The position numbers and the translations under genes were made by a program. A stretch of DNA of 59,755 nucleotides, filler included. It is 6 parts of 6 records of this genome, joined end to end, with 100 filler letters (N's around TTAATTAATTAA, not from the genome) between each part and the next. Parts side by side here need not be neighbours in the genome. Positions count along the whole stretch, not along the records: positions 30,321 to 37,092 come from SRR2962707_422; 5 more parts are not named here. One strand, given 5' to 3'. Below, piece after piece: positions 22,435 to 49,702 of the stretch. The notes under the pieces were generated by a model. That model saw nothing but the letters and a program-made list of their open reading frames with translations, was not told the DNA's origin and ran no database searches. Within the stretch, counting starts at the first letter, position 1, and every line of letters begins with the position of its first letter.

Positions 22435-22675
22435 TGTTCACGTCCTGGTCATGGTTCGGCTTCTCTTGCGTTCATTCCAAGGCCACGCACGCAGATCACC
22501 CAGCCCCCCCTCCCCACACGCACACACACAATGTCATACTAATCAACAACGGAGCAGCAAACCAACGAATGGATTCAGTCTGGATTGTTGGTCGACACAC
22601 GACTGACGTGGCTCATCATCGGCGACAGCGAGCAGGCAGGCCTTTGAGGAAAAAGAAGGCCCAATGAAAGAATGC

Positions 22676-22703: not shown

Positions 22704-22803
22704 NNNNNNNNNNNNNNNNNNNNNNNNNNNNNNNNNNNNNNNNNNNNTTAATTAATTAANNNNNNNNNNNNNNNNNNNNNNNNNNNNNNNNNNNNNNNNN
22801 NNN
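22704..22803. other. Artificial contig linker 2
   Basis: 44 N + TTAATTAATTAA + 44 N. Confidence 0.98.
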
Positions 22804-30220: not shown

Positions 30221-30320
30221 NNNNNNNNNNNNNNNNNNNNNNNNNNNNNNNNNNNNNNNNNNNNTTAATTAATTAANNNNNNNNNNNNNNNNNNNNNNNN
30301 NNNNNNNNNNNNNNNNNNNN
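30221..30320. other. Artificial contig linker 3
   Basis: 44 N + TTAATTAATTAA + 44 N; flanked by CT-rich and GT/GC microsatellites. Confidence 0.98.
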
Positions 30321-30492
30321 GTGTGTGTGCGTGCGTGTGTGCGTGTGTTTGCGCGCGCGAATTGCCGGCGTTCGCTAGGCGGTTGTTGTTTGTTTGGGTT
30401 GTTGTTGTGGGTTGCCGTGAGGGTTCTTCTCCAGGTGCGTGAGCGCGTGCGGGGTGCGGAGCAACAGCAGGTACGTACGTGGGTGGGTAAAG

Positions 30493-32426
30493 ATGCCGAC
30501 AGGTATCGGAAAGAAAAAGGGCGACCCCGCGCCAGATGGGTACGAGTCGTCTGATGCGAGCGATGGGTACGAGTCCGATCCAGAGTTCGAGGTCGAGTTG
30601 ATGGCGCAGCTGCTCGAAAAAGTGAACAAGTACAAAGTCGAGCTGGGCATGGGCAACTGGAAAACACTGCGGAAGGTGTTCCGGCTCCTCAACCTGTACA
30701 TTCAGCATTACATGCTGAACAAAATGGACGACCTACTGCTCGAGTTTGCAGACACTTGCAAGGGCATGTATGGGTCGCCGTATTACATCAAGTACATTCA
30801 GATGCTTGGGTTTTGTCGCTGGAAACAGCACAGGTTGCGGGAGGCCCTGGCGTTGTTTCACGAGCAGGAGTCGATCATTGGAGACAACGAAATTCTTTGT
30901 GAGAACATCGGCCACACGTACTCCAGCCTTGGTGATTATGAATCGGCCATTGCCTCGTTTCAGAAAGGACTTCACCTGCTCGGGGACACCGGCATGCCCG
31001 GCCGCAAAGCTGGATTTTACTACGGCATTGCTCTCGCCAAAGACCGTCTCGGCAACACGCAGGAGGTGCGTTTACATTATTGAGCTTGCATTGCACTGCT
31101 GACACTTTACCCCCGTTCTGTGCATGCATTGCAGCTGGGTTACTTGATCCTGTCTGTATGGACTGACGTGTCACAATTCTGCCATTGATTGGACATCGGA
31201 AAAACAAAAAAAACAACGCACACACTCACGAAATTGATGCAAATGGTTTCTCTGGCATGTTTCCGCTCGAAATCCAAATCGTTGCGCATCTTCTGCTTCG
31301 TTCAGTCAATACCGCTTCTCCATGCAGCCTTAGATGGGTATCGAAAAGAACGAGTTGACTTAGAGGGTAACCCCATCGACAGCTCCATCCACGCCAAAGT
31401 GCAAATGTCCCTGGGACACATGCACGAGAAGCTTGGAAACCTGGATGAAGCTGTGAAGTTCATGGCCGAGTCGGTACGGTCAACATGATGTTTGGCTTTT
31501 GAACGGCGCGTTGCGGTTTGTGACAGCTCCGGTCGCTTCTGTGCCCCGACGTATGCTGACAAAATTCACCCACTCGCGGCACTGCTGGTTTTGCTATTGC
31601 AGGTTCGTGTCTTTCGCAAGTGTGTCGGGAATCAAAATCCATTAACACACGGGGCACTTGGAAGCCTTGGGAAGGTGAAGCTGGCACAAGGAAAGCACTC
31701 TGATGCCCTCGTGCTGCTCACAGAGGCTTTGGAAGGCGAAGCTTCGAAGGATGCGTTTCAGATTGACGATAGTTTTATGCTTCTCAATAGCATCAAAACG
31801 ATCCTTATTGAGCATCCAGATGCTGCAAAGCACGTAGCTGCCAGCAAAGGGGGAAAGCCGCCTCGCGGCGGCGGCGGCGGTGGTGGCGGCGGGAAAATGA
31901 GTGGGTTTGCTGCCACCTTTAAGCCGTACGTTTTCGAGACAAGCGAGCAAAGGCGAAAGCACATACCACATCCCACAGTCGATTCCTGTCAGTGTGCTAA
32001 TGGCCAGCACTGTGTGTCTGGTTTGTTTCGCCAGGTACCTCCCAGTTTGTAGACAAATCGTCAAACGCTGCACGCCACTCATAAGTACCCCGAAAATGGG
32101 CGATGTGGCAGCCACATTCAAGACCGTTGGGGAGATGCTTATTATGGGTGGTCAATTTCGAGAAAGCATTGCGGTCCTGAACCTAGCACTCGCCATTTTC
32201 CCAAAAGTCACGCAGGTGGACTGCTCCGTAAGTAAAGCGGTTTTTTTTGGCTCATGGGAGCGGCAGCGTGGAGAAACATGGCTTGCGCGCAGCCGACGCT
32301 AAACTGTCAAATGCTTGCTTTGCTTGGTATGTGTATGCAATGAATACCACGTTGCCACACCAGGGACTGATTGCCGGCTGCACTCAATTGCGAGATCTAG
32401 CAAAGACGATGGCGGATAAAAAATGA
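30493..32426 (+). CDS. Tetratricopeptide-repeat protein; exons 30493-31065, 31306-31473, 31603-31925, 32035-32227, 32364-32426 (439 aa)
   Basis: TPR motifs ENIGHTYSSLGDYESAIASFQKGL, MSLGHMHEKLGNLDEAVKFM, GSLGKVKLAQGKHSDALVLL; four phase-consistent GT-AG introns. Confidence 0.8.
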
Positions 32427-32608
32427 CAGAGAGCACGCGTGGAACTTTACAGTCGCCTCTTGAAGTTGAATTTTATACCATGTCCATCCCCAGCGAACAA
32501 GCTCTCGATTGCAAGAAGCTTTAGTTTTTAGCTCAAACAAAATAAAGCAGGCCTCGTGGTCTCGGGTTTCACAACAACATTGATGCCGAATCAATCAAAG
32601 GGCGAAAT

Positions 32609-35600
32609 TCATTGAACTGAGTCAGTCGCTTTTTCAGATACCTTCGTTGGCTCCGCCGCCGACTTCAATCCTCGCTTAGAGCGCTGAGGTTTCTGTTCCT
32701 TTGGCTTCTCCCCAGATTTAAGACTTGGCCCGCTCTTGATTTTGGACTTGCTAGACTTGGCCGAGGGCGTTGCTTTCGCTCCAACGGTGGACCGACTACC
32801 CTTTTGCGCTGCAGCTGTGGACTTGCGCTTGCGGGGAGCGCTGCCCGTGGAGTCGGCTTTTGATTGCTTAGCGGTGCCGCTGCCAGTGGAGTCGGTTTTT
32901 GGTTGCTTAACGCTGCCGCTGCCAGTGGAGTCGGCTTTTTGTTGCTTGGCTGCGGTGCCGTTGAAGTCGGGTTTTGGTTGCTCGGCGCTGCTGGCGCCGC
33001 GTCTACCTTTCGTTGCGAGCGGCGTTGTGCGAGACGTTGGTGTTGCTGCGGCTTTGCCTGTGGTGGCGTTTGTGAGTGTCAACTTGGGCGTTGGGACGGC
33101 AGAATTTGCTTTAGACGCAGCCTTCTTCCTGGTGCTTGATGGACCCCGAGAAGGTTTCTTTGAGGCAGGTGGTGCTCGGTTCATAGACTGGGCGGTGTCG
33201 CCCATTTTTTTTCCGCTTTTTTCCGTCGACGTTTTTCCGAGGTCGTCAATTGTGTCCTTTTTGTCGGTGGCTGGCAGGGTTGTTGATGAGGGATATCCCT
33301 CTTGAGGAGAAGCATGCTTGCTCGGGGAATCACTTGCCGCTCCGCCTGAAGTAACCTCAGTCGGCCGCTGGGCCTTCGGAGTTTTTGGCCGGGATCGCTT
33401 CCTTGCGGGCGGTGCCTGACCTGTGGCCACGAAGTAGTGTTTGCGCAACTTGTCGAAGGCAATCCCATGATACAGTACCTATATTCGTTTCCGCAGAAAC
33501 ACAGAGAAAAGCAGGATTCATTCACAAAGAGAGGCAAGAGCCGGCGCTATGTCTGGAGCGCTGTCGTAGCCCCCCAGGATCCCAATCACCCCGCCCCCCA
33601 ACGTACACTCCTCCATCCATCGTCGGACTGTTTGTTCGCGCAAAGTTGACGCTTGCATGACACACTCCACGCTGTCAAACTGTGGAACACCTCGCCCGAC
33701 TCAGCGTCGACAACGCAACCTGAGGCATAGCATACAAAATCCAAACACGGCAGTGGTGAACCTTTGGCGGCAAATCATCTCATGTGCCGACAGCACGTAT
33801 TGTTGGTCCAACAAGGAATGCGCACCATCTTCGCGCAGATCGCCAACGAAGTCGCGGCCTCGATACGACACTGAAAGGCATCCTTTTCCAGGCACAAAAA
33901 AACCTTGGTCGATTCCCAGCTTCAGTGAAAACTTGATTTCGCCCTTTTTGTTTTTGCGCTTCTTTGGACCAAGCACCATATCAACTTTGGAAATGATGCG
34001 GTCCAAGCATGCCGTCACCGCTTTCATAACTCGCGCTTCAGCAGCTTCTTGGGCGCGCCGCGCTCTTAGCTGTGCAGGGTCCAGCACAGGCTCTGGTTTT
34101 GCCTTTTTGGCTGAAGAGCGCGTTGGAGTTGATCGACCGGATGAGGCGACAGAGGTGGTCGGTGTGAGCTTGTGAGCGCCACCCTCGCCTCCCTTGCCGC
34201 GGGCACCGGCCTTGGCTTTGCGGGCGCGAGCTTTTCGAGCGGCATCGTTGCGCCGTTTTCGCTCCTTAGCTCCCTCCCGCCGTTCGGCAGCCGCACGAGC
34301 TCGCGCTTCCGCGCGCTCAATGCGATCAATGACATGGTCAAGACGGCGGTAAACCGCTCGCATAACAATGCGATCGCGTCCTTGCAGCCCTACAATTGCA
34401 GCGGCGAGCGTTTCATCCAGGTCCTCGGGCTGCTCTTGGGGCGTAGGGGTTGCACCCTGTTTCTTCTTTTTCGGTGCTTTTCTCGAGGATGACGGCGATC
34501 CTGCTGGGGTGCCCCCTCCCGACAGTTGCTTCGCGCGCCTTCGCTTGGCGGCTTCGCGCCTTCGAGCGCGAACACGCTCCATTTCTTCCGGTGTCTTGTT
34601 CTTCTGCACAGCGGGAATTTTGGGCTTGCGCTTGGCGGACGCCTTTTTCTTTTGGGCGGCAGGTGCCTTTTTCTTCCGCGCAGTGGGGATCTTTTTCTTC
34701 GAATCGGCTTTGGTGGCTTTGGTGGCTTTACGTGGCTTTGTGGGTCGCTTCGTCACGGGCTTGGCGATTTTTTTCCCTTTTTTGCTTGTTTTCGCAGCTT
34801 TGGCCGCCCGCAATCCAGATTTCACTTTCGGCTGCTGCCTCCTCTTCTTCGTACTGACGTCAACCTCTTCTGGTCCTTCTGGTAACAAAAAGTAAGGTGC
34901 CTGGCGCCGCTTCCGCAACTTCGTCAGACATTGTATCCTGTGGTGGCGCAAAGGACCATCACGGTTGAGCACACGCGAATTGTGGAAGAATGGCGCCATG
35001 ACCAGCGGAGCGCGGGCTGCACGAGGGCGGCGGAGAGCCGCTTCTAAGTCCGTTGAAGTCGGTGGAGCCAGACCGGAGACCACAGTTGTAGCACCGTTTT
35101 TTTCAGAGATGGCTGAAGCGGTGTCATCGACCTCTGCAGCAGCGACAAGCGCAACATTGGCGGTGGGCGAATCGTTGATGAAGCTGTCATCGACGGAATC
35201 TTTTTCGCCCACAGAATCAGCGACTCCATCATCGCTCGGTTCTTCACCATAATCCTTTGCACACAGAGTTTTATCTGAAAGGTCCTCGATGCTGTGCTCT
35301 TTCAGCTCTGGATCATTGTCCCATGTATCATCGCCCCCTTCAGCACTCGCAGCCGCTCCCGTTGAGGTGGCCGAATGCAAAGGTGCCATCTCGCCACTGA
35401 AAGCCAACCGAGACTGCATTCTGGCTGCCATGCGGGCAAAATCTTCGTCAGTCAGTCCGCGCAAGGCTCGGTACGATATGCGCCATCCAAATTTCCGCAT
35501 CCTCGATGCACACCCTTGCTCCAATTCTTCGCGCGCTAACCGCAGATCGAACTTCGCTGCGGGTAGTGCAGCTGGTTGGGACGACTGCTGATCTGCACCA

Positions 35601-37092
35601 GGACTAGGAAGGTCAAACCCTGTTTTTTCTGGCTTATCGTCATGGAAACAGAAACATCGGCGACGAGCAGACTGCATATCTTTGATTCGAATAGGTTCGT
35701 CGATCCCGGTTTCCTGAAGTCGCAGTGCGGCGATGGCATTCTTGGCGAACACGGGGGAGTCAAGGTCAATGCCTCGAAGTGCAATGAGGCGCCGTGCTAA
35801 CTCCTCGCGCAGACAGTCAGCCTGCGCGCGAAGAACTTTGGCTTCGGGTTCGTTGTAGAAAAGAATGGGCATTCCCGCTGGCAATTTTTCAGCGCCTTCC
35901 GAGGACTCGTTTGAAGAGGAGTCGGACAGGGACGAAGACTCTGAGTCTGAGTCAGACGACAGAGATGAATCCGACGACAGCGATGAGTCCGACGACAAAG
36001 ACGATGAATCCGATGAGTCGGAGTCGGACAACGACGATTCCGATGATTCAGAAGATTCACTATTTTGCTTTTTCCGATTTCTCTTTTTCCGCCGCAGCCG
36101 AAGATTAGCCGCTCGCTTCGCCTTTTGCTTCCGGCGTTTAAGCTCGTCGGCCTTCTTTTTCCGTTTCTGCGCGGCCGTCAGCACTGCTCTTTTGCTCTTG
36201 CGGGCAGGACCCTTTTTTGCTGCCGCAGCGGAGGTCGCCGATCGAGCTGGGACTTTGCGTTTAGCAGGGGACTGAGCTGCAGCGCGCTTTGGTTTTCCCT
36301 TCAGCTGCAAGGGCGTTGGGCGTTTCGGAGTGCTCTTGGTCGTCGTGGCGGGCTTCAAACTTTTGCCTGGCAACAGTCCACCATCGGTGCTATCGCCCGC
36401 CTCTTTGGTGGCATTGCCCAAAGTTGAGCCATTATTCCCACTGTCATTTGATTGGGACAAACTTCGAGGCGTAGTATCAGTTTTTTTGGCCTGCGTTCCG
36501 TCCTCTCGTAGTGAATTTTCTGGAAGATTCGTTGTGACTCCCTTGTCGTTGTCGAGGCGAGCTCTTTTGACTTTAGCGCCAAACGCATCACTCCCGCTAT
36601 CCTCCTGTTCGTCACCTTTGGCGTGATCTTGGGTGACGTTGTTTTTAGTGCCACTCTTGCTTTTTTGGGATCCTGCTGGCTCATTGCCGTCCTGATCACG
36701 ATCGTCTTCACCATCCTCACCTTCACCATTTTGTTCGTTTTCATTCCCGCCGTTGTGTCCTCCAACATCAGCCTCACCATCATTGTTGTTGCCGGCGTCT
36801 TCGCTCTTCGCTGCCGCCTCTTCATCGCCCTCAATCTCCACAGGTCCGCTGTTTTTGCTGTTGTCTTCCTTACCATCGTCATTCTCGCCATCGCCATCGC
36901 CATCGCCATCGCCATCATCATCAGCATCATCACCATCGTCGCCAGCATCATCCTCGCCGTCATTACCGTCATCATCGTCATCGTCATCGTCGTCACCATC
37001 ATCATCATCACCACCATCATCGTCACTACCACCACCACCATCATCGTCGTCGTCGTCGTCACCATCGTCGTCGTCATCATCATCATCGTCAT
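32609..37092 (-). CDS. 5'-truncated low-complexity nuclear-type protein (>1,415 aa) containing a RAMA domain; exons >37092-33826, 33719-33607, 33478-32609
   Basis: Splicing GTGCGC...CAG and GTACGT...TAG gives FSLKLGIDQGFFVPGKGCLSVSYRGRDFVGDLREDGCVVDAESGEVFHSLTAWSVSCKRQLCANKQSDDGWRSVLYHGIAFDKLRKHY, which fits the RAMA pattern of MPND. The rest is D/E-rich, S/D-rich and K/A/R-rich. Confidence 0.8.
32840..32985 (-). repeat. Coding 39-bp tandem repeat (3 copies + 1 degenerate) encoding KQxKxDSTGSGxx
   Basis: gctgccMgtggagtcggYtttt..ttgctt recurring at 32840, 32879, 32918. Confidence 0.85.
36880..37092 (-). repeat. Trinucleotide (GAT/GAC/GGT)n coding repeat, poly-Asp/Gly tract, at contig end
   Basis: cat/cgt/cac triplets on + strand, in frame with the downstream CDS on the - strand. 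Confidence 0.85.
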
Positions 37093-37192
37093 NNNNNNNN
37101 NNNNNNNNNNNNNNNNNNNNNNNNNNNNNNNNNNNNTTAATTAATTAANNNNNNNNNNNNNNNNNNNNNNNNNNNNNNNNNNNNNNNNNNNN
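37093..37192. other. Artificial contig linker 4 (eukaryote/bacterium boundary)
   Basis: 44 N + TTAATTAATTAA + 44 N; intron-containing genes before it, operonic high-GC genes after it. Confidence 0.98.
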
Positions 37193-37420
37193 GGCCCGGC
37201 GCTGGAAACCCCGATCCGCATGGAAATGATCCGCCACGGCATTTCGGGCGGGAACGGCAATGACGTCATGGCGCGGATTCTTGCCAGCGACGAAGGCCAG
37301 CAGGGCCTGATCGCCGGCGAGATGGATGGTGCCGATGCCTGCGACCCGGATTACAGTGGCGCTTACTTCGCCCGGGTCCTGTCGTACTTCACCGACGCAC
37401 AGGTGCGTGGCCCGCGCTGA
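37193..37420 (+). CDS. 3' end of a hypothetical protein (5'-truncated)
   Basis: Open frame from the contig edge with GC-rich third positions, ending TGA 2 nt from the convergent gene; no family recognised. Confidence 0.55.
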   Translation, partial: GPALETPIRMEMIRHGISGGNGNDVMARILASDEGQQGLIAGEMDGADACDPDYSGAYFARVLSYFTDAQVRGPR

Positions 37421-37422
37421 GG

Positions 37423-38601
37423 CTAGAGAGCTTCCACCGCTTCACACAGTTTTTCGATATCTCCGGCATCATTGTAATAGTGCACCGATGCCCGCACGAC
37501 TTCGTCCAGACCGCGATTTTCCATGTCGATGCGGGTCGAGCCCCGCCGTGACACCGAGACGTTGATGTTCTTTGCCGCCAGAGCCGCCTTGATCTCGTCC
37601 GGTGATTTACCGTCCATGATAAAGGTGGTGATGCCGCATTTCTGCGCCCCCAGATCGGTGAGGGTGACGCCCGGAATCGCCGACAGGGACCGGCGCAGGT
37701 CCTCTGCTGTCCCGATGATGCGGGACTGGATGTTTTCCATCCCCCATGCCAGCGCATAATCCACGGCCACGCCCAGCCCGATCACGGCCGCGATATTGAA
37801 TTCCCAGTTTTCGAAACGCTTGGCCGTCGGCAGGATTTCGAAGCTGTCGCGCCCGGTCCAGCTGGCAGCATGCAAATCCAGAAACAGCGGCTCCAGGGAT
37901 TCGATCCGGTTCTTGCGGACATACAGAAATCCGGTACCGCGTGGACCGCGTAGATATTTCCGTCCCGTCACTGATAGCGCATCGCAGCCGATCCGATCCA
38001 CATCCAGCACCAGCTGCCCGCACGACTGGCAGGCATCGAGCAGATAATAGACACCGGCGTCGCGGGCGATCTTGCCGATTTCCTCGGCAGGGTTGACGAG
38101 ACCGCCGTTGGTCGGCACGTGGGTCACCGAGATCATCCGCACCCGGTCATCGATCAGATTCCTCAGCGCCGCCAGGTCAACCGCGCCGTCTTCTCCGCTG
38201 GGGGCAACGACGATTTCCACACCGTGCGACCGGGCGGCCTGCAGATACGAGATATAGTTGGACGCATATTCCGCTTCGACGGTGATGATTTTGTCCCCGG
38301 GGCGGAACTGCCGGAGCATGGCATGGAAGGCCTGCAGCCAGGCGACGGATGCGTTCTCGACAAGGGCGATTTCACTGGCGTCCGCGTTCAGCAGCTCGGC
38401 AACCGCCTGATAGGTCCGCACCCGTTTGTCGTTTGCCAGCGCCGCCGCTTCGTAGCCGCCGATATCGGCTTCCAGCTGCAGGTGCCGGAACTGGGCATCC
38501 AGCACCGGTTGCGGCATCAACCCCGCACCGGCGTTATTGAAATGAACGACGTTTTTCGTTCCCGGCGTGTCGGCCCGCGCGCGTTCAATATCAATCGTCA
38601 T
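37423..38601 (-). CDS. Class V PLP-dependent aminotransferase/C-S lyase (EgtE / selenocysteine lyase-like)
   Basis: HFNNAGAG, LLDACQS, PLP lysine in SVTGRKYLRGPRGTG, VRASVHYYN; ATG at 38601 after GGAGGGG. Confidence 0.88.
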   Translation of the reverse strand: MTIDIERARADTPGTKNVVHFNNAGAGLMPQPVLDAQFRHLQLEADIGGYEAAALANDKRVRTYQAVAELLNADASEIALVENASVAWLQAFHAMLRQFRPGDKIITVEAEYASNYISYLQAARSHGVEIVVAPSGEDGAVDLAALRNLIDDRVRMISVTHVPTNGGLVNPAEEIGKIARDAGVYYLLDACQSCGQLVLDVDRIGCDALSVTGRKYLRGPRGTGFLYVRKNRIESLEPLFLDLHAASWTGRDSFEILPTAKRFENWEFNIAAVIGLGVAVDYALAWGMENIQSRIIGTAEDLRRSLSAIPGVTLTDLGAQKCGITTFIMDGKSPDEIKAALAAKNINVSVSRRGSTRIDMENRGLDEVVRASVHYYNDAGDIEKLCEAVEAL

Positions 38602-38633
38602 TTTCAGCCCCTCCTGTACGTCTGGAAGGTCGT

Positions 38634-39299
38634 TTATCGGCAAGGCAGGCGGGCATAGTAAAGGGATAAATCCGTAATATCCTGTTCACTCAGATGACGG
38701 ACCTGCCCCTCCATGATCGCGGCGCGGCGTTTTTCCTGACCATCCCCTTCCTGCAGCTTACCGGTTTTAAAACTCAGCATTTGCTGTTCCAGATATATAA
38801 AATCCTGCCCGGCAATGTTCGGTATATTTGGATTCTTGGCGTTGCCGTATTTGCCGTGGCAAACCTGACAGCGGGTTTCGACCCTTGGTGGGGGCAGCGG
38901 CGCACCGGTCATAATGGCACGACACGGCTTCGATGAATAATACGCCGCCAGGTCATTGATATCCTCGTCCTTAAGATCGATCACGTAGCTGTCCATGACT
39001 TCGTTTGTCCGCCGAGCCCTCATCATGGTCTTGGCTTCGCTCTCGACATAGGACGTGTATCCGGCCCTCAGCTTCGCGGACGCCCGCATCTCCCGGAGCT
39101 GCTTGACCAGATACTTGGCATGCTGATTCGCCAGGTTCGGAAACCCTTCAATGCGGTTTTCACCTTCCGTGCCATGGCACATCACGCACTTTTCAGCCAG
39201 CACGGCACCCCGTGCCGGGTCACCCTGGGCCCGGACCGGCGACGGCAGAACAAGCGCGATGAAGACGGGAATGAGAAAAAGGGAATTCAGGCGTAACAC
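38634..39299 (-). CDS. Periplasmic diheme cytochrome c (c4/c553 type)
   Basis: Signal peptide, two CxxCH motifs (CVMCH, CQVCH), PNLANQ..YL..QL and PNIAGQ..YL..QM, axial Met in each domain. Confidence 0.88.
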   Translation of the reverse strand: MLRLNSLFLIPVFIALVLPSPVRAQGDPARGAVLAEKCVMCHGTEGENRIEGFPNLANQHAKYLVKQLREMRASAKLRAGYTSYVESEAKTMMRARRTNEVMDSYVIDLKDEDINDLAAYYSSKPCRAIMTGAPLPPPRVETRCQVCHGKYGNAKNPNIPNIAGQDFIYLEQQMLSFKTGKLQEGDGQEKRRAAIMEGQVRHLSEQDITDLSLYYARLPCR

Positions 39300-39364
39300 A
39301 AGAAAGGCTCTCTGGTTGTTTCAATCATTCTCCAGCACGAACCTGACCCTAGCCTGTCGTCCGC

Positions 39365-40408
39365 TCATTTAGCCGAAGGCACACCCTTGGTCGTCGAATA
39401 TTCGAAATGCAGCGCTTTGTCGGGGAACACCCGCGCATAGGCATGATGCGCCGCGAACGCGGCTTCCGAGAAACCGGTCAGGATCAGTTTCAGTTTGCCC
39501 GGATAATCCGATATATCTCCGACGGCATAGATACCGGGGACCGACGTTTCAGCGGTCGCCGGGTCGGCGGGAATGCCGCCCTGCCCCGCCCCCAGACCCC
39601 AGTCCAGGATCGGCCCCAGATTCTGCGACAAGCCATAGAACGCAAGCAGGACATCTGCTTCGATTCGCCGCTCGTTGCCGTCCAGATCGGCGACGATCAC
39701 GGCTTCGAGGTGATCTTCGGTGCCGTCCAGACCCTGCAGTTGATAGGGCGTCACCAGATCGATGCTGCCGTCTTCGGCCAGCACCGTCATCCTGCGCACG
39801 CTCTCCTCCATCGCCCGGAACCGAGCGCGGCGATGCACCACATGGACCTTGTCCGCGATGCCGGAAAGCTGGATGGCCCAGTCGACGGCACTGTCCCCGC
39901 CACCGGCAATGACCACCCGTTTGCCTGCGAAATCCTTGACGGCGCCGACCATGTACTTGACCCCAAGTCCCGGCCCCTGCGCTTCATATCTTTCTATACC
40001 CGGCAGCGGTGGCCGTTTCGGACCGAAGGCCCCGACCCCGGCGGCAATGATCACGGCACGGGCGCTGATCTCGGTGCCCGCCGACGTGGTCAGGAGGAAA
40101 TCACCGGCTTTGCCCGACAACCCGGTGACCTGCTGATTGAGATGTATATGCGGCTCGAACGGGGCCATCTGCCGGTCCAGTGCGCGGATCAGGTCACCCG
40201 CGGCAATTTCGGGCTGCGCCGGAATGTCGAAGATCGGCTTTTCCGGATACAACGCCGCGCACTGCCCGCCGATGTCTTCAAGCGCGTCGATCAACCGGCA
40301 CTTCATGCCCAGCATGCCGCACTGGAATACCGCGAACAGTCCCACAGGCCCGGCACCGATGATTGCGACATCGGTGGAAAAGCGTTCGTTTGCGGGCTCT
40401 ATGGTCAC
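39365..40408 (-). CDS. Ferredoxin--NADP+ reductase, thioredoxin-reductase-like (YumC type)
   Basis: IIGAGPVG, GGQCAALYPEKPIFDIP, GGGDSAVDWA, HRR, GDI..YPGKLKLILTGF.E, C-terminal FEYSTT; no CxxC; GTG start at 40408 after AAAGGA. Confidence 0.9.
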   Translation of the reverse strand: MTIEPANERFSTDVAIIGAGPVGLFAVFQCGMLGMKCRLIDALEDIGGQCAALYPEKPIFDIPAQPEIAAGDLIRALDRQMAPFEPHIHLNQQVTGLSGKAGDFLLTTSAGTEISARAVIIAAGVGAFGPKRPPLPGIERYEAQGPGLGVKYMVGAVKDFAGKRVVIAGGGDSAVDWAIQLSGIADKVHVVHRRARFRAMEESVRRMTVLAEDGSIDLVTPYQLQGLDGTEDHLEAVIVADLDGNERRIEADVLLAFYGLSQNLGPILDWGLGAGQGGIPADPATAETSVPGIYAVGDISDYPGKLKLILTGFSEAAFAAHHAYARVFPDKALHFEYSTTKGVPSAK

Positions 40409-40528
40409 GTCTTCGGGTCCTTTGTCTGACCGTCCCGGCGGATCGGGGAACGGCATCACTAGGATGAGTGCCTGACGGCGGCGGTTCAAGTCTTGTTCGC
40501 CCGCAAAGCGGCATATACAAACGCAGTC

Positions 40529-41020
40529 ATGCACGATCAGACAGACCGCATTGCTGACGTATCCGTTGCCGACGAGGTTGGAACCCGTGACCTCGCCGCC
40601 CGGATCGCGCCCGTTCTGGCGGCGGGTGACGTGATTGCGCTCTCGGGGACACTCGGCGCCGGCAAGACGGCCTTTGCCCGGGCATTGATCAATGCCCTGC
40701 CGGGAGACGCCGAAGATGTCCCGAGCCCGACCTTCACCCTGGTCCAGACCTATCCGCGCGGCGCGCTCGAGATCTGGCATTTCGATCTGTACCGGCTCGA
40801 AGACCCGGATGAAGCCTATGAACTCGGGATCGAGGATGCCTTCGCTGACGCCGTCAGCCTGATCGAATGGCCGGACCGGCTGGGCACGCTGATGCCTGCC
40901 GGGCGGCTGCTCATCGACATTTCCGAAACCCCCGCCGGCCGCCGCTTCGTCATTTCCGGAGATGCCGCCTGGGCGGCGCGGCTTGCAGACGTTTTCGAAG
41001 GAATACTCCCGCATGGATAA
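40529..41020 (+). CDS. tsaE: tRNA threonylcarbamoyladenosine biosynthesis ATPase
   Basis: LSGTLGAGKT, SPTFTLVQTY, HFDLYRL, IEWP. Confidence 0.95.
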   Translation: MHDQTDRIADVSVADEVGTRDLAARIAPVLAAGDVIALSGTLGAGKTAFARALINALPGDAEDVPSPTFTLVQTYPRGALEIWHFDLYRLEDPDEAYELGIEDAFADAVSLIEWPDRLGTLMPAGRLLIDISETPAGRRFVISGDAAWAARLADVFEGILPHG

Positions 41021-42038
41021 ACGTGCCGAACCCCGGATGACGTTTCTGGCCAATGCCGGCTGGGCCGGGGCCAAGGTCAGCGTGCTGGCCGCCGATGCCT
41101 CGTTCCGGAGTTATTACCGGGTGCAGTTGAACGACCGCCAATGCGTGCTCATGGATGCGCCGCCGCCCGAAGAGGATATCCGCCCCTTCGTGACCGTCGG
41201 CCGCTACCTTGCGCAGCTCGGCTTCAGCGCACCGCGAATCCTCGCCGAAGATGAGCGTCGGGGCTTTCTGCTGCTCGAAGACCTCGGCGACGACACCTAT
41301 ACCCGCGTTTTTGAAGCCGGCGGCGATCAGGGACAATTGTACGACGCGGCGATCGATACCCTTGTGCATCTGCATGAACTGTCGTCGGCCAAAACCGCCC
41401 CCGAGGATATTCCCCCTTACGACATGGACCGGTTACTGGCCGAAGCCATGCTGTTTGTCGACTGGTACATGCCCGCCGTCGGCACCCCCGTCGATGACAC
41501 CACCCGCACCGCCTATGAAGAGGCCTGGCGCACCGTTTTCGCCGACATCGCCACACGGCGTGAAACGCTGGTGCTTCGCGATTATCACGTCGACAACCTG
41601 ATGTGGCTGCCCGCGCGAAGCGGCACCGCACGGTGCGGCCTGCTGGATTTCCAGGACGCCCTGATCGGCGCCCGCGCCTATGACCTGATGTCGCTGATCG
41701 AGGATGCGCGGCGCGACGTCGACCATAAACGCGCCGACCGGCTGATCGAACGCTATATCGCGGCCTGCGGCGATATCCGTGAAAGCGATCTCAGACGCGA
41801 TATCGCGATCCTCGGCGCCGGCCGTCATGCCAAGGTGATCGGCATCTTCACCCGGCTCAGCCGACGCGACAGTAAATCCCAGTATCTGGTGCACATTCCC
41901 CGCGTATGGCGCCTACTGGAAAACAGCCTGAGCCACCCGGCCCTTTCCCCGCTGGCCCAATGGTTCGCAGAAAACGTCCCGGCTGGCCTTCGCGTCGTTC
42001 CCGACGCCAATAACAAGAAATCCGGAGCCCCCGAATGA
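41013..42038 (+). CDS. amgK: Aminoglycoside-phosphotransferase-family anomeric MurNAc/GlcNAc kinase
   Basis: DASFRSYYR, LMDAPP, LLLEDLGD, RDYHVDNL, LDFQDA, KVIGIFTRL; lies between tsaE and the nucleotidyltransferase. Confidence 0.85.
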   Translation: MDKRAEPRMTFLANAGWAGAKVSVLAADASFRSYYRVQLNDRQCVLMDAPPPEEDIRPFVTVGRYLAQLGFSAPRILAEDERRGFLLLEDLGDDTYTRVFEAGGDQGQLYDAAIDTLVHLHELSSAKTAPEDIPPYDMDRLLAEAMLFVDWYMPAVGTPVDDTTRTAYEEAWRTVFADIATRRETLVLRDYHVDNLMWLPARSGTARCGLLDFQDALIGARAYDLMSLIEDARRDVDHKRADRLIERYIAACGDIRESDLRRDIAILGAGRHAKVIGIFTRLSRRDSKSQYLVHIPRVWRLLENSLSHPALSPLAQWFAENVPAGLRVVPDANNKKSGAPE

Positions 42039-42781
42039 AAGTTGAGACCCCGAAAATCGCCATGGTGCTTTCCGCCGGATACGGCAAACGCATGCGCCCG
42101 TTGACCGACACCACACCCAAACCAATGCTTGCGCTGAACGGCAAACCACTGATCGGCCATGTGATGGACCGCCTTGCGCATACCGGTGTCGAACGCGCCG
42201 TCGTCAATCTTCACTATCTGGGGGACCAGATCCGCGCCTACCTCGCCGATGAAAAACGGCTGGAGGTCATCTTTACCGATGAGCCGGAATTGCTGGAAAC
42301 CGGCGGCGGCGTGAAGAACGCCCTGCCGCACCTGACCGAATCTGGCACCCAACCGGTGTATGTTATGAATTCCGATGCGTTCTGGCTCGACGGCTACGAA
42401 GACACCCTCGTCCGGCTGGCGCGCGAATGGAAGGATGACACCATGGATGCGCTGTTGCTCTTGCACCAGACCCCGGAAAGCCACGGCTATTCCGGGCGCG
42501 GCGATTTCATGGCCGATCCGCTGGGGCGTCTTCAGCGCCGCCCGGAATCAGAGATCGCGCCGTGGCTGTTCGCCGGCGTGCAGATCCTTCATCCGCGACT
42601 GCTGGACGGCAGTCCTGACGGCGCATGGTCGCTGAACCTGTTATTCGACAAGGCCATCGCCGAAGATCGGCTGTATGGTGTCATCCACGACGGCGAATGG
42701 TTCCATATCGGCACGCCGGACGGTCTCACGGAGGCGGAGGCGTTCCTCAACGAACCCTATGCCGGTGAACGGAAAAGATAG
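42035..42781 (+). CDS. murU: N-acetylmuramate alpha-1-phosphate uridylyltransferase
   Basis: AMVLSAGYGKRMRPLT...PKP, LLETGGG, WFHIGTP; ATGA overlap with amgK. Confidence 0.85.
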   Translation: MKVETPKIAMVLSAGYGKRMRPLTDTTPKPMLALNGKPLIGHVMDRLAHTGVERAVVNLHYLGDQIRAYLADEKRLEVIFTDEPELLETGGGVKNALPHLTESGTQPVYVMNSDAFWLDGYEDTLVRLAREWKDDTMDALLLLHQTPESHGYSGRGDFMADPLGRLQRRPESEIAPWLFAGVQILHPRLLDGSPDGAWSLNLLFDKAIAEDRLYGVIHDGEWFHIGTPDGLTEAEAFLNEPYAGERKR

Positions 42782-42787
42782 GAAGAC

Positions 42788-45751
42788 ATGTTCGAAGGAC
42801 CGGCGCCACGCATAGTCACAATCGATAGCGGCGTCGCCTTTGTGGATTCCCTGGCGGCGCGGCTGATCGATCATGCCGGCGCCGATCCCATGAAACTCGC
42901 GGAAATGCGCATCCTGCTGCCGACGCGACGCGCTTGCCGGGCGCTGGCCGAGGCCTTCCTGCGGCTGGGCGGCGGACGGGCGCAGCTCTTGCCGACGATG
43001 ACCCCGCTGGGCGACATGGACGAGGAAGAACTCTCCATCGCCGAGGCCGGCCTGCCGCCGGGCGCACAGGATGCACTGGGGCTACCGCCCGCGATCCCGT
43101 CATTGCGCCGTCAGTTATTATTGAGCACCGCCGTCATGGCATTGCCAGATCATCGCATGCATCCGGAACAGGCGACCGCGCTGGCATTGGAGCTGGCCAA
43201 GCTGATCGACCGGCTGGCGACGGAAAACTGCAATCCCGAAGACATCCGCAAACTTGTCGGCGACGACAATGACTATGCCGAGCACTGGCAGCACGTGCTG
43301 CGGTTCCTCGAAATCCTGATCGCCGCATGGCCGAACATTCTGGCCGACGAAGGCTGCCTTGATCCGGCACAGCGCCGGAATGCCCTGCTCCACGCCCAGG
43401 CGCGGCTGTGGCGCGAGATACCGCCCTCGACCCCGGTCATCGCCGCCGGGTCGACCGGCTCGATCCCGGCGACCGCCGACCTGCTGGGTGTAATCGCCGG
43501 GCTGCCGCAGGGCATGGTCATTCTGCCCGGTCTCGACAAGGGGATGGCGGACGATGCCTGGAACCTGCTTGGCCCGACGCATCCCCAGTTCGGCCTGAAA
43601 CAGCTACTGGCTCGGCTCGATGTCGCCCGCACCGACGTCGCCGATTTCGGTGCGGCACCGGATACCGCGCGGAGCCGTCTGATATCCGTTGCCCTGACCC
43701 CGGCCCGCGCCCCGGCACCGGCGTTGCCCGGCAGCGATGATATCGAAGCCGCCCTGGCCCATGTGTCGCGCGTCGACTGTCCGGGGCCGAGCGAGGAAGC
43801 CGCCGTCATCGCACTGGCCATGCGCCGCACGCTTGAAACGCCGGAAAAAACCTGTGCGCTGATCACGCCAGACCGCAGTCTGGCCAGACGTGTCGCGGCA
43901 GCCCTGAAACGATGGGGGATCGAGGTCGATGACTCCGCCGGTATCCCGCTGGCGCAGACACCCCCCGGTGCTTTTCTGCGGCTTGTCGCCGATGCCTGCA
44001 CGGAACGGCTGGCGCCGGTCCCGCTGCTGGCCCTTTTGAAGCATCCCCTGGCCGCCGGGGGTCTGGACGCGGGCGATTTCCGTGGACTGGTCCGTGGCTT
44101 CGAGATCAGAGCCCTTCGCGGTCCGCGCCCGGCACCGGGCATTCAGGGCCTGAAATCGGCGCTGGGAGACAGTGCGAAGACCGCACACCTGCGCCCGCTG
44201 ATCGATATCATCGACAAGGCTCTGTCACCGCTGCTCGACCTGCTGTCGCGCGACAGTGTTGATTACAATGAAGTACTGGCCTGTCATGTCGCCGCTGCCG
44301 AAGCGCTCGCAACAGACAGGGAACTTGCCGGTGCGGCACGGTTGTGGGCCGGTGAGGCCGGTGATGCAGCGGCGCGATTCGTCGCCGAGATGGCCGAGGC
44401 GATCGACGTTCTGGGTGCCCAGCCGGGGACGTCCTATGCGGGGATGTTCGACGGTCTGTTGTCAGGCCGCGTCGTCCGCCCCCGCTTCGGCGCCCATCCC
44501 CGTCTGCATATCTGGGGGCTGCTTGAAGCCCGTCTGCAACATGCCGACACCGTCATTCTGGGCGGTCTGAACGAAGGCACATGGCCGCCGGAAGCCGAGA
44601 GCAACCCGTGGATGAGCCGCCCGATGATGACGGAAATCGGCCTTGAGATGCCGGAGCGACGGATCGGCCTGACGGCGCACGATTTCCAGCAGGCCTTTGC
44701 CGCGCCCGAGGTCATCCTGACCCGCGCCGAGCGTCTGGGCGGTGCACCGACGGTGCCGTCACGCTGGCTTTTGCGCATCGACAACCTTTTGGAACGTGCG
44801 GGCAGCAAAACCCGTCTCGGCGGCGATCCGGAAACACCCTGGCTGAAATGGGCCGACAAACTGGACGACGCAGAACCGATCCGGATCCGCGAGCCGAAAC
44901 CCCGCCCGCCGCTGAGCGCGCGCCCGAAACAGCTTTCGGTGACGCAGATCGAAACCCTGATCCGTGATCCCTATGCGGTCTATGCACGCCATGTGCTGGG
45001 ACTGAAAGCCATCGATCCGCTGGATGCCGATCCCGGCGCCGCCGATCGCGGCAGTCTGATCCATGAGGTTCTGGAAACCTTTGTCCGCGAATTTCCCGAT
45101 ACCGTCCCCGACGATGCCGAACGCCGTCTGCTGGAGATCGGCAGAGAGGTCTTCGCCGGTCATCTGGCGCGGCCCGGCGTGCGTGCCTTCTGGTGGCCGC
45201 GGTTCGAGCGCATTGCCGCCTGGTTCGCGGCCTGGCAGCGCCAGCGTCTTGCCGAGGGTTGGCAGGTCAGCTTTGCCGAGGAGATGGGAACCTATCACAT
45301 CGACGCCGTGCCGGCAGGCTTCACCATCACCGCCAAGCCGGACCGCATCGACCACCGGCCCGAGATCGGTCTGTCGATCATCGATTACAAGACAGGCCAG
45401 CCACCGAGCGAAAAGCAGGTCGAAAGCGGTTTCAGCCCGCAGCTGCCGCTGGAAGCCGTGATGGCCCGAAACGGCGCGTTCAAGGGTGTGCCCGCCGGGG
45501 ATGCGGCGGAACTTCTGTACATCCGTCTGTCGGGCGGACGTAAACCGGGTGAACTGAAACCGGTCAAAGCCGATATCCCGGCGCTGATCGACAAGACCCT
45601 GAACGGCGTGCACAAGCTGATCACTCACTATGCCGAACCCGACAACCCGTACCTGTCCGCACCCCGGCCGAAATTCGAAAACCGCTACAGCGATTACGGG
45701 CATCTGGCCCGCATCGCCGAATGGCGCGGCAGCGGCGAGGAAGACGAATGA
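42788..45751 (+). CDS. addB: Double-strand break repair protein AddB
   Basis: LPTRRACR, AAGSTGSIPATA, GLLEARL, LSVTQIETLIRDPY, nuclease motif KPDRID...IIDYKTG, end DYGHLARIAEW. Confidence 0.95.
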   Translation: MFEGPAPRIVTIDSGVAFVDSLAARLIDHAGADPMKLAEMRILLPTRRACRALAEAFLRLGGGRAQLLPTMTPLGDMDEEELSIAEAGLPPGAQDALGLPPAIPSLRRQLLLSTAVMALPDHRMHPEQATALALELAKLIDRLATENCNPEDIRKLVGDDNDYAEHWQHVLRFLEILIAAWPNILADEGCLDPAQRRNALLHAQARLWREIPPSTPVIAAGSTGSIPATADLLGVIAGLPQGMVILPGLDKGMADDAWNLLGPTHPQFGLKQLLARLDVARTDVADFGAAPDTARSRLISVALTPARAPAPALPGSDDIEAALAHVSRVDCPGPSEEAAVIALAMRRTLETPEKTCALITPDRSLARRVAAALKRWGIEVDDSAGIPLAQTPPGAFLRLVADACTERLAPVPLLALLKHPLAAGGLDAGDFRGLVRGFEIRALRGPRPAPGIQGLKSALGDSAKTAHLRPLIDIIDKALSPLLDLLSRDSVDYNEVLACHVAAAEALATDRELAGAARLWAGEAGDAAARFVAEMAEAIDVLGAQPGTSYAGMFDGLLSGRVVRPRFGAHPRLHIWGLLEARLQHADTVILGGLNEGTWPPEAESNPWMSRPMMTEIGLEMPERRIGLTAHDFQQAFAAPEVILTRAERLGGAPTVPSRWLLRIDNLLERAGSKTRLGGDPETPWLKWADKLDDAEPIRIREPKPRPPLSARPKQLSVTQIETLIRDPYAVYARHVLGLKAIDPLDADPGAADRGSLIHEVLETFVREFPDTVPDDAERRLLEIGREVFAGHLARPGVRAFWWPRFERIAAWFAAWQRQRLAEGWQVSFAEEMGTYHIDAVPAGFTITAKPDRIDHRPEIGLSIIDYKTGQPPSEKQVESGFSPQLPLEAVMARNGAFKGVPAGDAAELLYIRLSGGRKPGELKPVKADIPALIDKTLNGVHKLITHYAEPDNPYLSAPRPKFENRYSDYGHLARIAEWRGSGEEDE

Positions 45752-48700: not shown

Positions 48701-49200
48701 TTAAACGCGGTAATGTGGTGCATGCGCTGATGCAGACTTTACCGGAGCTTGCCCCGGCGCTCAGGCGCGAGGCCGCCAAAAGCTATATCGCCCGCCCGGC
48801 GCACGGATTCGATACGCATATGCAGAGTGCTCTGCTGGATGAAGTCATGGCGGTTCTTGAAGACCCGGCGTTTGCCGCCGTGTTCGGTCCCGGGTCCCGT
48901 GCCGAGGTTCCGGTTACGGGCACCATCGAGACTGGGGACGGTCCCCGCGTCATTTCCGGGCAGATCGACCGGCTGGTGCACACCGGCACGGAACTGATGA
49001 TTGTCGACTTCAAGACCAACCGACCGCCCCCGGCGCTGGCCCGGGATGTGGCGCCGCTGTATCTCAAACAGATGGCGACGTACCGCGCCGCGCTCAGGCG
49101 GATATTCCCGGATTTACCGGTCCGCGCGTTCCTACTGTGGACAGATGGTCCCAAGTGCATGGAATTACCGGATGAATTACTGGTGCCTTTGGCACCTTGA
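45748..49200 (+). CDS. addA: Double-strand break repair helicase-nuclease AddA
   Basis: ANAGTGKT, LTFTKAAAAEM, VDEAQDT, VGDEKQSIYSFQGA, MTVHGAKGL, LYVGLTRA, GQIDRL...VDFKTN; ATGA overlap with addB. Confidence 0.95.
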   Translation: MSSADFKIRKRTGQQITAAAPEASVWVSANAGTGKTGVLVDRISRLLLAGVEPERILCLTFTKAAAAEMANRLAELLGKWSAMPDDVLRMELQALGETPDDPDLLIRARQLFAMTLEAPEGLRIRTIHAFCESLLGRFPLEARIAPDFRVMDDRDQRELQLQARDSVLADAASRGTGLADALSAVAALVNEEQFAELMKELDGTRAKFRGALSKYGGPDQLADAVYGALGLDPNITADDVIRDACIIDDETRAMLERLCTAWDEGASQNNGFARDTRQWLAMQPEQRHGCWHDLYKSIFIKKDGGLKAEKTLMSKGALSFDPDALSLAIELGERCLRTLDLLKQISVASATGNLIRIGAALIDAYEGIKQRHARLDYDDLIQHASALLSSASGVSWVHYKLDGGIEHVLVDEAQDTSPEQWQVVEEIASDFFSGASRYEETAERPRTMFAVGDEKQSIYSFQGADPVMFGTMKNRFGDQVQTIGQVWKPVAMAESFRSAPAILDIVDKVFEDADAARGLSFDGQRVDHISARQGQAGRVTLWPKEVPQEDDGEEDPWYVPLDHVSADSPLARVAIRIADTVKGWLDNEEILPAQGRPVRPGDVLILVQRRRRMAETLVAALKERGIPVSGRDRMILPDQLVIQDLIALGRLTLLADDDLNTATVLKGPLLGLNEEQLFALAYERPGTLLDALRDKRTEDAAFAHAWDRITAWRNRADFMPPFEFFSNVLNADGGRRQLLARLGPDAADPIDDFLAAALDFEADHVPSMEGFLHWLEIGGTEVKRDLEQGRNEVRVMTVHGAKGLQAEIVFLADACSVPAPQTDDRIRWPDGDIPMWPGIKDNETEALLDLKLQKRAQALEEYRRLLYVGLTRAKDRLYVTGFTTARSGNEPSWYDMIERAMDEVAVPETEADSRIRLVYDKPQTAEPDGARVAESDRAADSPLPGWATAAPEREPLPPKPLSPSRPDDEEPPVRSPLSGDDGQRFKRGNVVHALMQTLPELAPALRREAAKSYIARPAHGFDTHMQSALLDEVMAVLEDPAFAAVFGPGSRAEVPVTGTIETGDGPRVISGQIDRLVHTGTELMIVDFKTNRPPPALARDVAPLYLKQMATYRAALRRIFPDLPVRAFLLWTDGPKCMELPDELLVPLAP

Positions 49201-49297
49201 CGGGGTCATGGCAGCTACCTAGATTCCATTAACACAGTCGTTGCGTGGCTGAGCAGTGCCGCCATCGATTACAGCTTTTTTTGAAGGGATACACCTT

Positions 49298-49615: not shown

Positions 49616-49645
49616 TCCCGCCCAACGGGGTCATATCAGGTTTCC

Positions 49646-49679
49646 GGACCCCGCCCGCAACGGCGGGGTTCGTTTTTTT
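49646..49679 (+). terminator. Intrinsic terminator after trxA
   Basis: ggaccccgcc-cgcaac-ggcggggttc hairpin followed by a T7 tract. Confidence 0.8.
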
Positions 49680-49702
49680 CAGGGAATAGACAGGGGTAAA
49701 CG

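Follow-up and report, generated by a model that had tools for sequence, protein, structure and literature searches.

Background

The RAMA domain takes its name from the N6A methylases and restriction nucleases to which it is fused. The passages on this domain in the survey of Iyer et al. (2015-16, PMC4738411) propose that it acts as an m6A discriminator, describe it from animals, chlorophytes, stramenopiles, rhodophytes and large DNA viruses in chromatin-type architectures, place it in eukaryotic lineages with predicted or known m6A, and report frequent fusion of the eukaryotic copies to JAB or further chromatin domains. Regarding experimental work on RAMA, all the papers that we found deal with animal MPND and MYSM1 or with bacterial CcrM, and, judged by title, none of the papers listed in a literature search is on a protist RAMA chromatin protein.

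According to the sections of the MPND structural study that concern RAMA (PMC9963953), the fold consists of three helices, two long antiparallel strands and four short strands, and the MPN domain is located C-terminal to it. The domain binds double-stranded DNA via the backbone, independently of the sequence: residues S113, S115 and W135 touch the backbone, and mutation of any of them to alanine nearly abolishes binding. Furthermore, these sections ascribe to the acidic regions of MPND an inhibitory effect on DNA binding and a favourable one on histone binding, and they report that the RAMA domain of CcrM also contacts DNA backbones, with no base-specific contacts.

Even in the case of MPND, the reading of N6-methyladenine (6mA) is contested (PMC6591016 versus PMC9963953). 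In the pull-down part of the former paper, the isolated MPND RAMA was selective for a 6mA duplex and the MYSM1 RAMA was not, whereas in the binding data and the complex described in the latter, 6mA had no effect and no base contacts were seen. In the relevant part of a 2024 paper (PMC11037411), the preference for 6mA could not be confirmed.

Here we compare with these systems a gene from a microbial eukaryote, found in the window, which is the whole stretch of 59,755 nucleotides of DNA that was analysed.

Gene structure and splicing

The gene is on the minus strand and its three exons, once joined, stay open in a single frame over 1,415 codons, starting at the contig edge and reaching the TGA at 32611-32609 (Table 1). 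Without splicing, the frame of exon 1 runs into a stop within intron 1. A contig of run X2 (4,328 letters) omits exactly 33720-33825 and 33479-33606 (CT..AC on the plus strand), the cut positions having been corrected by offsets of +2 and +4. The same contig is colinear with exon 1 across 33824-36873 without a joint, and no further joint was found anywhere in 32531-36873. By comparison, the DNA contig 7 of run X1 (33325-34773) is colinear through both introns. The two GT-AG introns and the 113-nt exon that the first-pass annotation had read from the letters are thus upheld by the sequence and by what the X2 contig omits relative to the X1 DNA; both introns are real, and the RNA-like contig uses both junctions exactly.

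We call X2 RNA as a guess only, and no sequencing run among those listed is recorded as RNA. X2 looks like cDNA because a second X2 contig also omits four GT..AG introns of the neighbouring gene on the plus strand. GT(A/G)(C/A)G...YAG ends are common to all six introns on the contig. We also considered a giant-virus origin of the contig and rejected it, because six spliceosomal-type introns of two convergent genes are spliced out in the RNA-like contigs.

At the 5' side of the gene, the frame is still open at 37092, where the contig gives way to an artificial spacer (N44-TTAATTAATTAA-N44). Positions 36874-37092 were treated as a repeat; contigs from X1 as well as X2 add just 219 letters there and end within it. 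As had been claimed earlier, the N-terminus of the RAMA gene is really missing from the contig.

Table 1. Features of the RAMA gene, in positions of the window; aa, residues of the visible protein
Feature	Positions	Strand	Details
Exon 1	33826..37092	-	Visible aa 1-1088 and first base of codon 1089; 5' end lost at contig edge
Intron 1	33720..33825	-	106 nt; GT 33825-33824, AG 33721-33720
Exon 2	33607..33719	-	113 nt; middle of the RAMA domain
Intron 2	33479..33606	-	128 nt; GT 33606-33605, AG 33480-33479
Exon 3	32609..33478	-	289-aa product: end of RAMA, then 270-aa basic Ser/Thr/Pro/Lys tail; TGA 32609-32611
3' untranslated region	32531..32608	-	Down to the end of the RNA-like X2 contig (record 10) at 32531
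RAMA, N-terminal part	33827..33964	-	aa 1043-1088, end of exon 1; PF18755 positions 8-53, 21.2 bits, E 2.8e-4
RAMA, middle	33607..33719	-	Exon 2; PF18755 positions 58-85, 20.1 bits, E 6.1e-4
RAMA, C-terminal part (inferred)	33422..33478	-	aa 1127-1145, start of exon 3; from hhalign of the spliced peptide only
Poly-Asp/Gly acidic tract	36611..37092	-	Visible aa 1-160; 75 D+E, 8 K+R; by composition
Ser/Asp-rich tract	35894..36055	-	aa 346-399; 34 S+T, 13 D+E, no K/R; by composition
Lys/Ala/Pro-rich basic tract	34451..34855	-	aa 746-880; 53 K+R, 22 A, 12 P; composition like a histone H1 tail
Three 13-aa tandem repeats	32837..32956	-	C-terminal tail, about aa 1301-1340; DSTGS at the centre of each

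Identity of the RAMA domain

For the Pfam searches, the exon-1 tail (52 aa) and exon 2 (37 aa) were scored as separate queries, and PF18755 (RAMA) was the sole family listed at E <= 10 for each of them. The matched profile positions are colinear (Table 1). Neither exon peptide by itself attains the gathering score of the family, which is 35.2 bits, and the two separate scores add up to 41.3 bits. Taken by themselves, the first 40 residues of exon 3 matched neither RAMA in Pfam nor MPND, and the whole 1,088-aa product of exon 1 had no family listed by Pfam. Since each ORF piece alone stays under the gathering score, ORF-based annotation would miss RAMA, which is what the first-pass annotation had said of the ORF track. 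Per-exon or ORF-based calling is therefore blind to this domain, found only after both short introns were removed.

Among solved structures, the best and only clear match was the MPND RAMA chain 7ydt_A. Exon 2 matched its residues 100-141 (E 4.8e-5) and the exon-1 tail its residues 70-99 (E 0.067), so that the two matches adjoin without a gap, with identity at 29 of the 72 aligned residues as counted from the HMMER midlines. In this gap-free alignment Ser1102, Thr1104 and Trp1124, all of them encoded by exon 2, face S113, S115 and W135 of MPND; chain indices run one above the residue numbers, an offset that fits the three residues.

We also compared the spliced peptide with bacterial RAMA sequences, collected by genome searches that matched 4/4, 80/301, 0/5, 18/401 and 17/401 genomes. 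The CcrM-type profile was built from 33 of 34 loci (L088 was left out, the motif filter having found no segment in it) and the diverse profile from 18 loci, leaving out L121-L123 (flagged unpublished) as well as L129-L132, L138, L139 and L141-L149 (partial, below the cut-off or stop-containing). Using hhalign, the spliced peptide aligned to an alignment of 50 bacterial RAMA sequences with a score of 33.5 (P 2.2e-5, 88 columns) and a probability of 69-76%, and this alignment spans all three exons and template columns 28-119 of 130. Leaving the introns in lowered the score to 24.1 and leaving out exon 2 lowered it to 26.2, the separate parts scored 17.6 and 14.2, and none of 200 shuffles came up to 33.5 (mean 11.8, SD 2.4, maximum 20.2). 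On the same bacterial alignments hmmsearch is less sensitive than hhalign, and it gave the spliced domain 6.2 bits with the 33 CcrM-type sequences and 7.6 and 7.8 bits with the sets of 50 and 18 sequences. With these home-made profiles the spliced domain ranked first of 1,074 targets, a result that is not significant by itself. As a chance control, 120 short ORFs drawn at random from the window's eukaryotic contigs were searched; RAMA was matched by 0/120 of them, and any family at E <= 0.01 by 1/120.

Pfam, 7ydt_A, hhalign and the X2 junctions thus support an MPND-type RAMA domain split over three exons, as originally proposed.

The rest of the protein

Over the 1,415 visible aa, Pfam listed no family besides RAMA. 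Judging from the sequence, RAMA is the sole recognisable folded module, in line with the earlier claim, and it is placed near the C-terminus. Downstream of RAMA no JAB/MPN domain was found: Pfam lists nothing for the exon-3 product at E <= 10, and the RNA-like contig contains the stop codon and the 3' UTR, which bears out what had been said about this side of the protein. By Pfam at E <= 10, neither the exon-1 product nor exon 3 has a linker-histone globular (winged-helix) domain, and AT-hook cores (RGRP, GRP) are absent from the visible protein.

The acidic, Ser/Asp and Lys/Ala tracts already remarked upon are present in the composition tables. The acidic ones are at aa 1-160 and 571-680, and the stretches next to RAMA are net basic. 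The DSTGS motifs of the tail are at 1309, 1322 and 1335. An AlphaFold2 model of aa 400-760, predicted without an alignment, has a few isolated helices, with a mean pLDDT of 42.3 and a pTM of 0.19, and speaks neither for nor against a second folded module.

Regarding homologues, none was found for aa 560-1088, aa 400-1088 had 0 matches at E <= 0.001 among 1.84 billion representative proteins, and a search for longer proteins with exon 2 plus three read-through codons returned no candidate. As these searches were empty, there is no evidence of conservation. An exact scan of JGI metagenome contigs for 41 bases of exon 2 and an Rfam search of the whole window gave 0 matches each.

Comparison with described RAMA proteins

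The domain has Ser/Thr/Trp where the MPND RAMA (PDB 7YDT/7YDW; PF18755) has its DNA-contact residues S113/S115/W135, so that one contact residue is Thr here and Ser in MPND. However, the proteins around the domain are different. MPND and MYSM1-like deubiquitinases have an MPN/JAB domain C-terminal to RAMA and this protein has none; RAMA is near the C-terminus here and near the N-terminus in MPND; and the length is at least three times that of MPND, most of it of low complexity. Both have acidic tracts, but these flank RAMA in MPND and are hundreds of residues away from it here. Also unlike MPND, this RAMA comes from a protist host and is split by two introns.

Bacterial RAMA domains (the C-terminal domain of CcrM-type adenine methyltransferases, and those in Actinomycetota and Bacteroidota ORFs of varied length) belong to the same Pfam family, although they resemble this domain far less than MPND does (6-8 bits by hmmsearch). 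The alpha-proteobacterial ones end open frames of about 365-420 aa, which we read as putative CcrM-type methylases, whereas no enzyme domain is visible here. Aa 746-880 and the C-terminal tail are like the tails of linker histone H1 in composition; the differences are the missing globular domain and the motifs, with only 4 [ST]P.[KR] and no [ST]PKK.

The survey passages of Iyer, Zhang and Aravind on eukaryotic RAMA proteins without JAB (PMC4738411) describe chromatin-type proteins of algae, stramenopiles and other protists, and our protein is of the same class. The partner domains named in those passages are DAM, ankyrin, SET, PHD, Chromo, Tudor, Bromo, BRCT, ARID, TAM/MBD, PARP zinc finger, AT-hook and RING, none of which is found here by Pfam, and a RAMA-only architecture may already be catalogued in the same survey. 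Calling the factor undescribed, as the first-pass annotation did, was too strong, given that RAMA chromatin-type proteins had already been reported in protist lineages (PMC4738411). With this gene a class that had been predicted gains a further example, an incremental addition, since such algal and stramenopile proteins were predicted in 2015-16 in the portion of PMC4738411 cited here.

Possible functions

We read this as an expressed, correctly spliced nuclear gene of a microbial eukaryote, encoding a mostly disordered RAMA protein of at least 1,415 aa, which is probably a chromatin protein that binds double-stranded DNA. By analogy with the described proteins, the most likely function would be that of a chromatin protein binding double-stranded DNA without sequence preference. 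The Ser/Thr/Trp surface of RAMA would grip the sugar-phosphate backbone independently of the sequence, as in MPND and CcrM, and the Lys/Arg/Ala-rich tracts may add non-specific affinity for DNA and nuclear targeting. The poly-Asp and Ser/Asp tracts, if they behave like the acidic regions of MPND, would bind histones or damp the DNA binding. The sum of these properties would be a protein associated with nucleosomes or linker DNA and carrying no enzymatic domain in its visible part. The DNA binding, the histone binding and the nuclear location of the protein are all inferred by analogy. As the gene holds an MPND-type RAMA and its visible part has no deubiquitinase domain, a DNA-binding role could be studied here free of the enzyme.

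A first alternative is that RAMA selectively recognises N6-methyladenine and that the charged tracts link 6mA-marked DNA to chromatin. The domain is of the MPND type, the MPND RAMA was the one that selectively bound the 6mA duplex in the pull-downs (PMC6591016), and RAMA has been proposed as an m6A discriminator that occurs in m6A lineages (relevant passages of PMC4738411). Nevertheless, the DNA-binding sections of the MPND structure paper describe binding independent of sequence, without base contacts and without any effect of 6mA (PMC9963953), the MYSM1 RAMA showed no 6mA selectivity in the same pull-downs (PMC6591016), the statement in the 2024 paper does not confirm the preference (PMC11037411), and a scan of 15 large ORFs of the window turned up no methyltransferase. 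We consider this alternative unlikely, and the label of predicted 6mA reader given to the domain at first was overstated, for it is the original hypothesis of the family and the reported results on MPND are in conflict (PMC6591016, PMC9963953, PMC11037411). If the host turns out to be rich in 6mA, the reader hypothesis could be tested in it. A more specific form of it, that this lineage-specific protein is the dedicated, non-enzymatic 6mA-to-nucleosome adaptor of its host, with RAMA on methylated linker or promoter DNA and poly-Asp holding histones, is speculative and to our minds rather improbable; if true, it would make a clean natural system to settle 6mA reading by MPND-type RAMA domains.

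The second alternative concerns the missing end of the protein. The visible part might be the non-catalytic tail of a larger enzyme, with a JAB/MPN, SET or PHD-like domain beyond the poly-Asp tract and RAMA targeting it to DNA. The frame is open at the contig edge, the X1 and X2 contigs end in the same repeat, and fusion to JAB or chromatin domains is frequent for eukaryotic RAMA in the survey passages (PMC4738411). However, the MPN domain of MPND is C-terminal to RAMA in the architecture given by PMC9963953, and that side is complete and empty here; moreover, the 1,040 visible residues N-terminal of RAMA have no Pfam family. Such an enzyme is quite unlikely in our opinion, and the non-enzymatic chromatin protein remains our preferred explanation.

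Finally, a decayed or chance similarity to RAMA in a generic charged disordered (e.g. nucleolar) protein with no DNA-binding role would fit the exon peptides that score under the Pfam gathering score, the empty homologue searches and the weak hmmsearch scores with bacterial profiles, but it is very improbable in view of two independent, colinear and adjoining matches to one family and one solved chain, the 0/120 control ORFs with RAMA, the 0/200 shuffles at the hhalign score, the contact residues that are kept and the frame that is intact over two introns in the RNA-like contig.

Host lineage

The host had been labelled a probable stramenopile, a label that finds no support here. The one conserved marker encoded on another contig of the window is an M18 aminopeptidase; among its best 120 matches, the named proteins all come from Viridiplantae, at about 48-53% identity. 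The M18 contig and the RAMA contig may be from different organisms, because the window also joins bacterial contigs. The aminopeptidase has, in addition, two relatives without a name at 73% and 66% identity.

Gene structure and splicing

In its visible part, the RAMA gene consists of three exons, whose coordinates are given in the table together with those of the other features. With both introns removed, 1,415 codons are read without a stop; with them left in, the frame meets a stop 42 codons into intron 1. The first-pass annotation had proposed that two GT-AG introns hide a 113-nt exon, and these junctions are actually used in a contig of 4,328 letters from X2 (a run guessed to be RNA), which covers 32531-36873 and skips exactly both introns and nothing else, while a contig from X1 (DNA sequencing of the same organism) is colinear through both. 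A second X2 contig lacks the four introns of the neighbouring TPR-repeat gene, which after splicing can be read for 463 codons without a stop; this contig and that of the RAMA gene end 39 bases apart. Since six introns are removed and all of them have common end motifs, X2, whose RNA label is a guess, behaves as cDNA.

Compared with the window, X1 has single-base deletions at 32241, 33205, 33570, 36213 and 36661, each within a stretch of 6-8 identical bases; these are likely to be homopolymer sequencing errors. At the three sites within its reach (33205, 36213 and 36661, all coding) X2 is identical to the window, and therefore the open frame is supported. The frame is open to 37092, and the X1 and X2 contigs both break off in the repeat coding for poly-Asp, where 219 more letters of each are identical to the window, so that the N-terminus is cut by the contig edge, as had been suggested.

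Coordinates of the features (aa are counted along the visible spliced protein from the contig edge)
Feature	Position	Strand	Remarks
RAMA gene, exon 1	37092-33826	-	long open frame entering from contig edge
Intron 1	33825-33720	-	106 nt, GT..AG
Exon 2	33719-33607	-	113 nt
Intron 2	33606-33479	-	128 nt, GT..AG
Exon 3 (last)	33478 to TGA at 32611-32609	-	
Poly-Asp/Gly tract	aa 1-160		75 acidic, 8 basic residues; by composition
Basic Lys/Arg/Ala tract	after poly-Asp/Gly tract		by composition
Ser/Asp tract	after basic Lys/Arg/Ala tract		by composition
Two ordinary-composition stretches	aa 400-570, 681-745		second acidic stretch between
Lys/Ala/Pro-rich tract	aa 746-880		H1-tail-like composition
Helical basic region	between aa 746-880 tract and RAMA		
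17-residue motifs	about 34319-34369, 33983-34033	-	aa 908-924, 1020-1036
RAMA domain	about aa 1043-1145		
Basic Ser/Thr/Pro tail	C-terminal to RAMA		270 residues, three 13-residue repeats
TPR-repeat protein gene	30365-32492	+	convergent to RAMA gene
TPR gene introns	31066-31305, 31474-31602, 31926-32034, 32228-32363	+	GT..AG
M18 aspartyl aminopeptidase gene	208-1758	+	intron-less; first contig
Teneurin-like EGF-repeat open frame	2087-4144	-	686 aa
Ankyrin-repeat open frames	8393-15706, 16211-17323, 18052-22437	-	uninterrupted; 2,438, 371, 1,462 aa (first and third very long); second contig
Artificial spacers	7074-7173, 22704-22803, 30221-30320, 37093-37192, 51536-51635		N44-TTAATTAATTAA-N44

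Identity of the RAMA domain

The exon pieces were searched separately, and the spliced peptide was assembled and compared as a whole with hmmsearch and hhalign. The 52 residues at the end of exon 1 matched positions 8-53 of the Pfam RAMA family PF18755 (21.2 bits, E 2.8e-4) and the peptide from the 37 complete codons of exon 2 matched positions 58-85 (20.1 bits, E 6.1e-4). These matches are colinear and adjoining, and RAMA was the sole Pfam family at E <= 10 for either peptide. Scored apart, each piece is below the gathering score of 35.2, and their summed bits are 41.3. Against the solved structure of the animal protein MPND (7ydt_A), the exon-1 tail matched residues 70-99 (E 0.067) and the exon-2 frame residues 100-141 (E 4.8e-5), which puts the intron precisely at the boundary between residues 99 and 100 of that chain; 29 of the 72 aligned residues are identical (midline count). 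The first 40 residues of exon 3 alone had no RAMA or MPND match in Pfam or the solved structures. As a chance control, 120 random ORFs were drawn from 452 short ORFs on the eukaryotic contigs; none matched RAMA and one matched any family at E <= 0.01.

Bacterial RAMA domains were gathered by genome searches (matches in 4/4, 80/301, 0/5, 18/401 and 17/401 genomes), leaving out three loci flagged as unpublished and the partial or interrupted loci. With profiles of this set, hmmsearch gave the spliced domain 6.2 to 7.8 bits, below significance though ranking first among 1,074 targets (872 ORFs from the window together with 200 shuffled sequences and 2 spliced forms). Against the same alignments, hhalign gave 33.5 for the spliced peptide (P 2.2e-5, probability 76%), with 88 aligned columns that begin in exon 1, take in exon 2 and extend into exon 3. 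The unspliced read-through scored 24.1, a form lacking exon 2 26.2, and the separate parts 17.6 and 14.2; none of 200 shuffles reached 33.5 (mean 11.8, SD 2.4, maximum 20.2). Because the alignment runs through all three exons and outscores the controls, the predicted domain is complete only once both introns are spliced out. Its resemblance to animal MPND is much stronger than that to the bacterial domains. The observation of a RAMA domain split across three exons is therefore confirmed, and the interpretation that accompanied it is supported in part.

Architecture of the visible protein

As previously claimed, RAMA is the only recognisable module, since Pfam found no other family in the visible protein, and it lies among acidic, Ser/Asp and H1-like Lys/Ala tracts that are seen in the composition. 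The absence of a downstream MPN/JAB domain also holds in the Pfam search, on a C-terminal side that is complete, with the stop within the X2 contig. There are no AT-hook cores in the visible protein; protein homologue searches found no homologues of the non-RAMA parts, and a word search found none of exon 2. For aa 400-760, AlphaFold2 run on the single sequence gave a mean pLDDT of 42.3, too low to inform. Upstream of RAMA there are two mutually similar helical motifs of 17 residues (local score 37 against 22.4 +/- 4.2 for shuffles, 7 of 1,000 reaching 37), which, by their sequence, may be a small internal duplication.

The factor had been called undescribed. This does not apply to the class, because RAMA transfer to eukaryotes is already stated in the available part of the work of Iyer, Zhang and Aravind (PMC4738411), and the gene adds to this predicted class. 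What stands is the particular architecture, RAMA alone amid low-complexity, charged sequence for which no relatives were detected. Judging by titles, no paper among those listed by a full-text literature search on this domain concerns a protist RAMA chromatin protein; one of these papers, in the part available, mentions a Toxoplasma gene with a RAMA domain in passing.

Putative function

The gene product is probably a non-enzymatic chromatin protein, by analogy with MPND, because of the behaviour of the MPND RAMA domain and the alignment with its contacts. According to the available part of PMC9963953, that domain binds dsDNA and not ssDNA, whatever the sequence; S113, S115 and W135 make hydrogen bonds to the DNA backbone, and binding is almost lost when any one of the three is replaced by Ala. 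At the same positions of a gap-free alignment, opposite these backbone contacts, exon 2 has Ser1102, Thr1104 and Trp1124. The same part reports that the acidic regions of MPND inhibit DNA binding and promote histone binding. By analogy, the RAMA domain and the basic tracts would hold DNA, and the acidic tracts would engage histones.

It had been proposed instead that the domain reads 6mA (N6-methyladenine in DNA), as the genomic associations of the RAMA family suggest (PMC4738411, in the part available) and also one pull-down in which MPND RAMA selected 6mA DNA (PMC6591016, likewise). However, we consider this unlikely: MYSM1 RAMA did not select 6mA DNA in that same pull-down, a later paper states, in the part available, that it was not possible to confirm this preference (PMC11037411), and MPND binding is reported to be unaffected by 6mA (PMC9963953).

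Host lineage and make-up of the window

The host had been called a probable stramenopile, which is not borne out by the only conserved marker, the M18 aminopeptidase: no stramenopile is among the named proteins in its best 120 matches, where the best named ones are Viridiplantae (plants and green algae, about 48-53% identity) and two unnamed relatives have 73% and 66% identity. This is the signal of one gene, on a contig possibly from another organism than the RAMA gene.

The 59,755 bases are not one molecule but six contigs joined by five artificial spacers, and adjacency across the spacers is without meaning because they join separate contigs. The fourth contig (30321-37092), bearing the RAMA gene, has a GC content of about 0.53. 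The last two (37193-51535 and 51636-59755) have about 0.63 and bacterial genes, which encode a class-V aminotransferase, an AddAB-like PD-(D/E)XK protein and UvrD helicase, and NMT1/THI5-like and YdcZ-like proteins. The aminotransferase is 97% identical to its counterpart in a Rhodospirillales MAG. Eukaryotic and bacterial contigs thus occur together with at least one bacterium represented, and the assembly is a eukaryote mixed with an associated alpha-proteobacterium.
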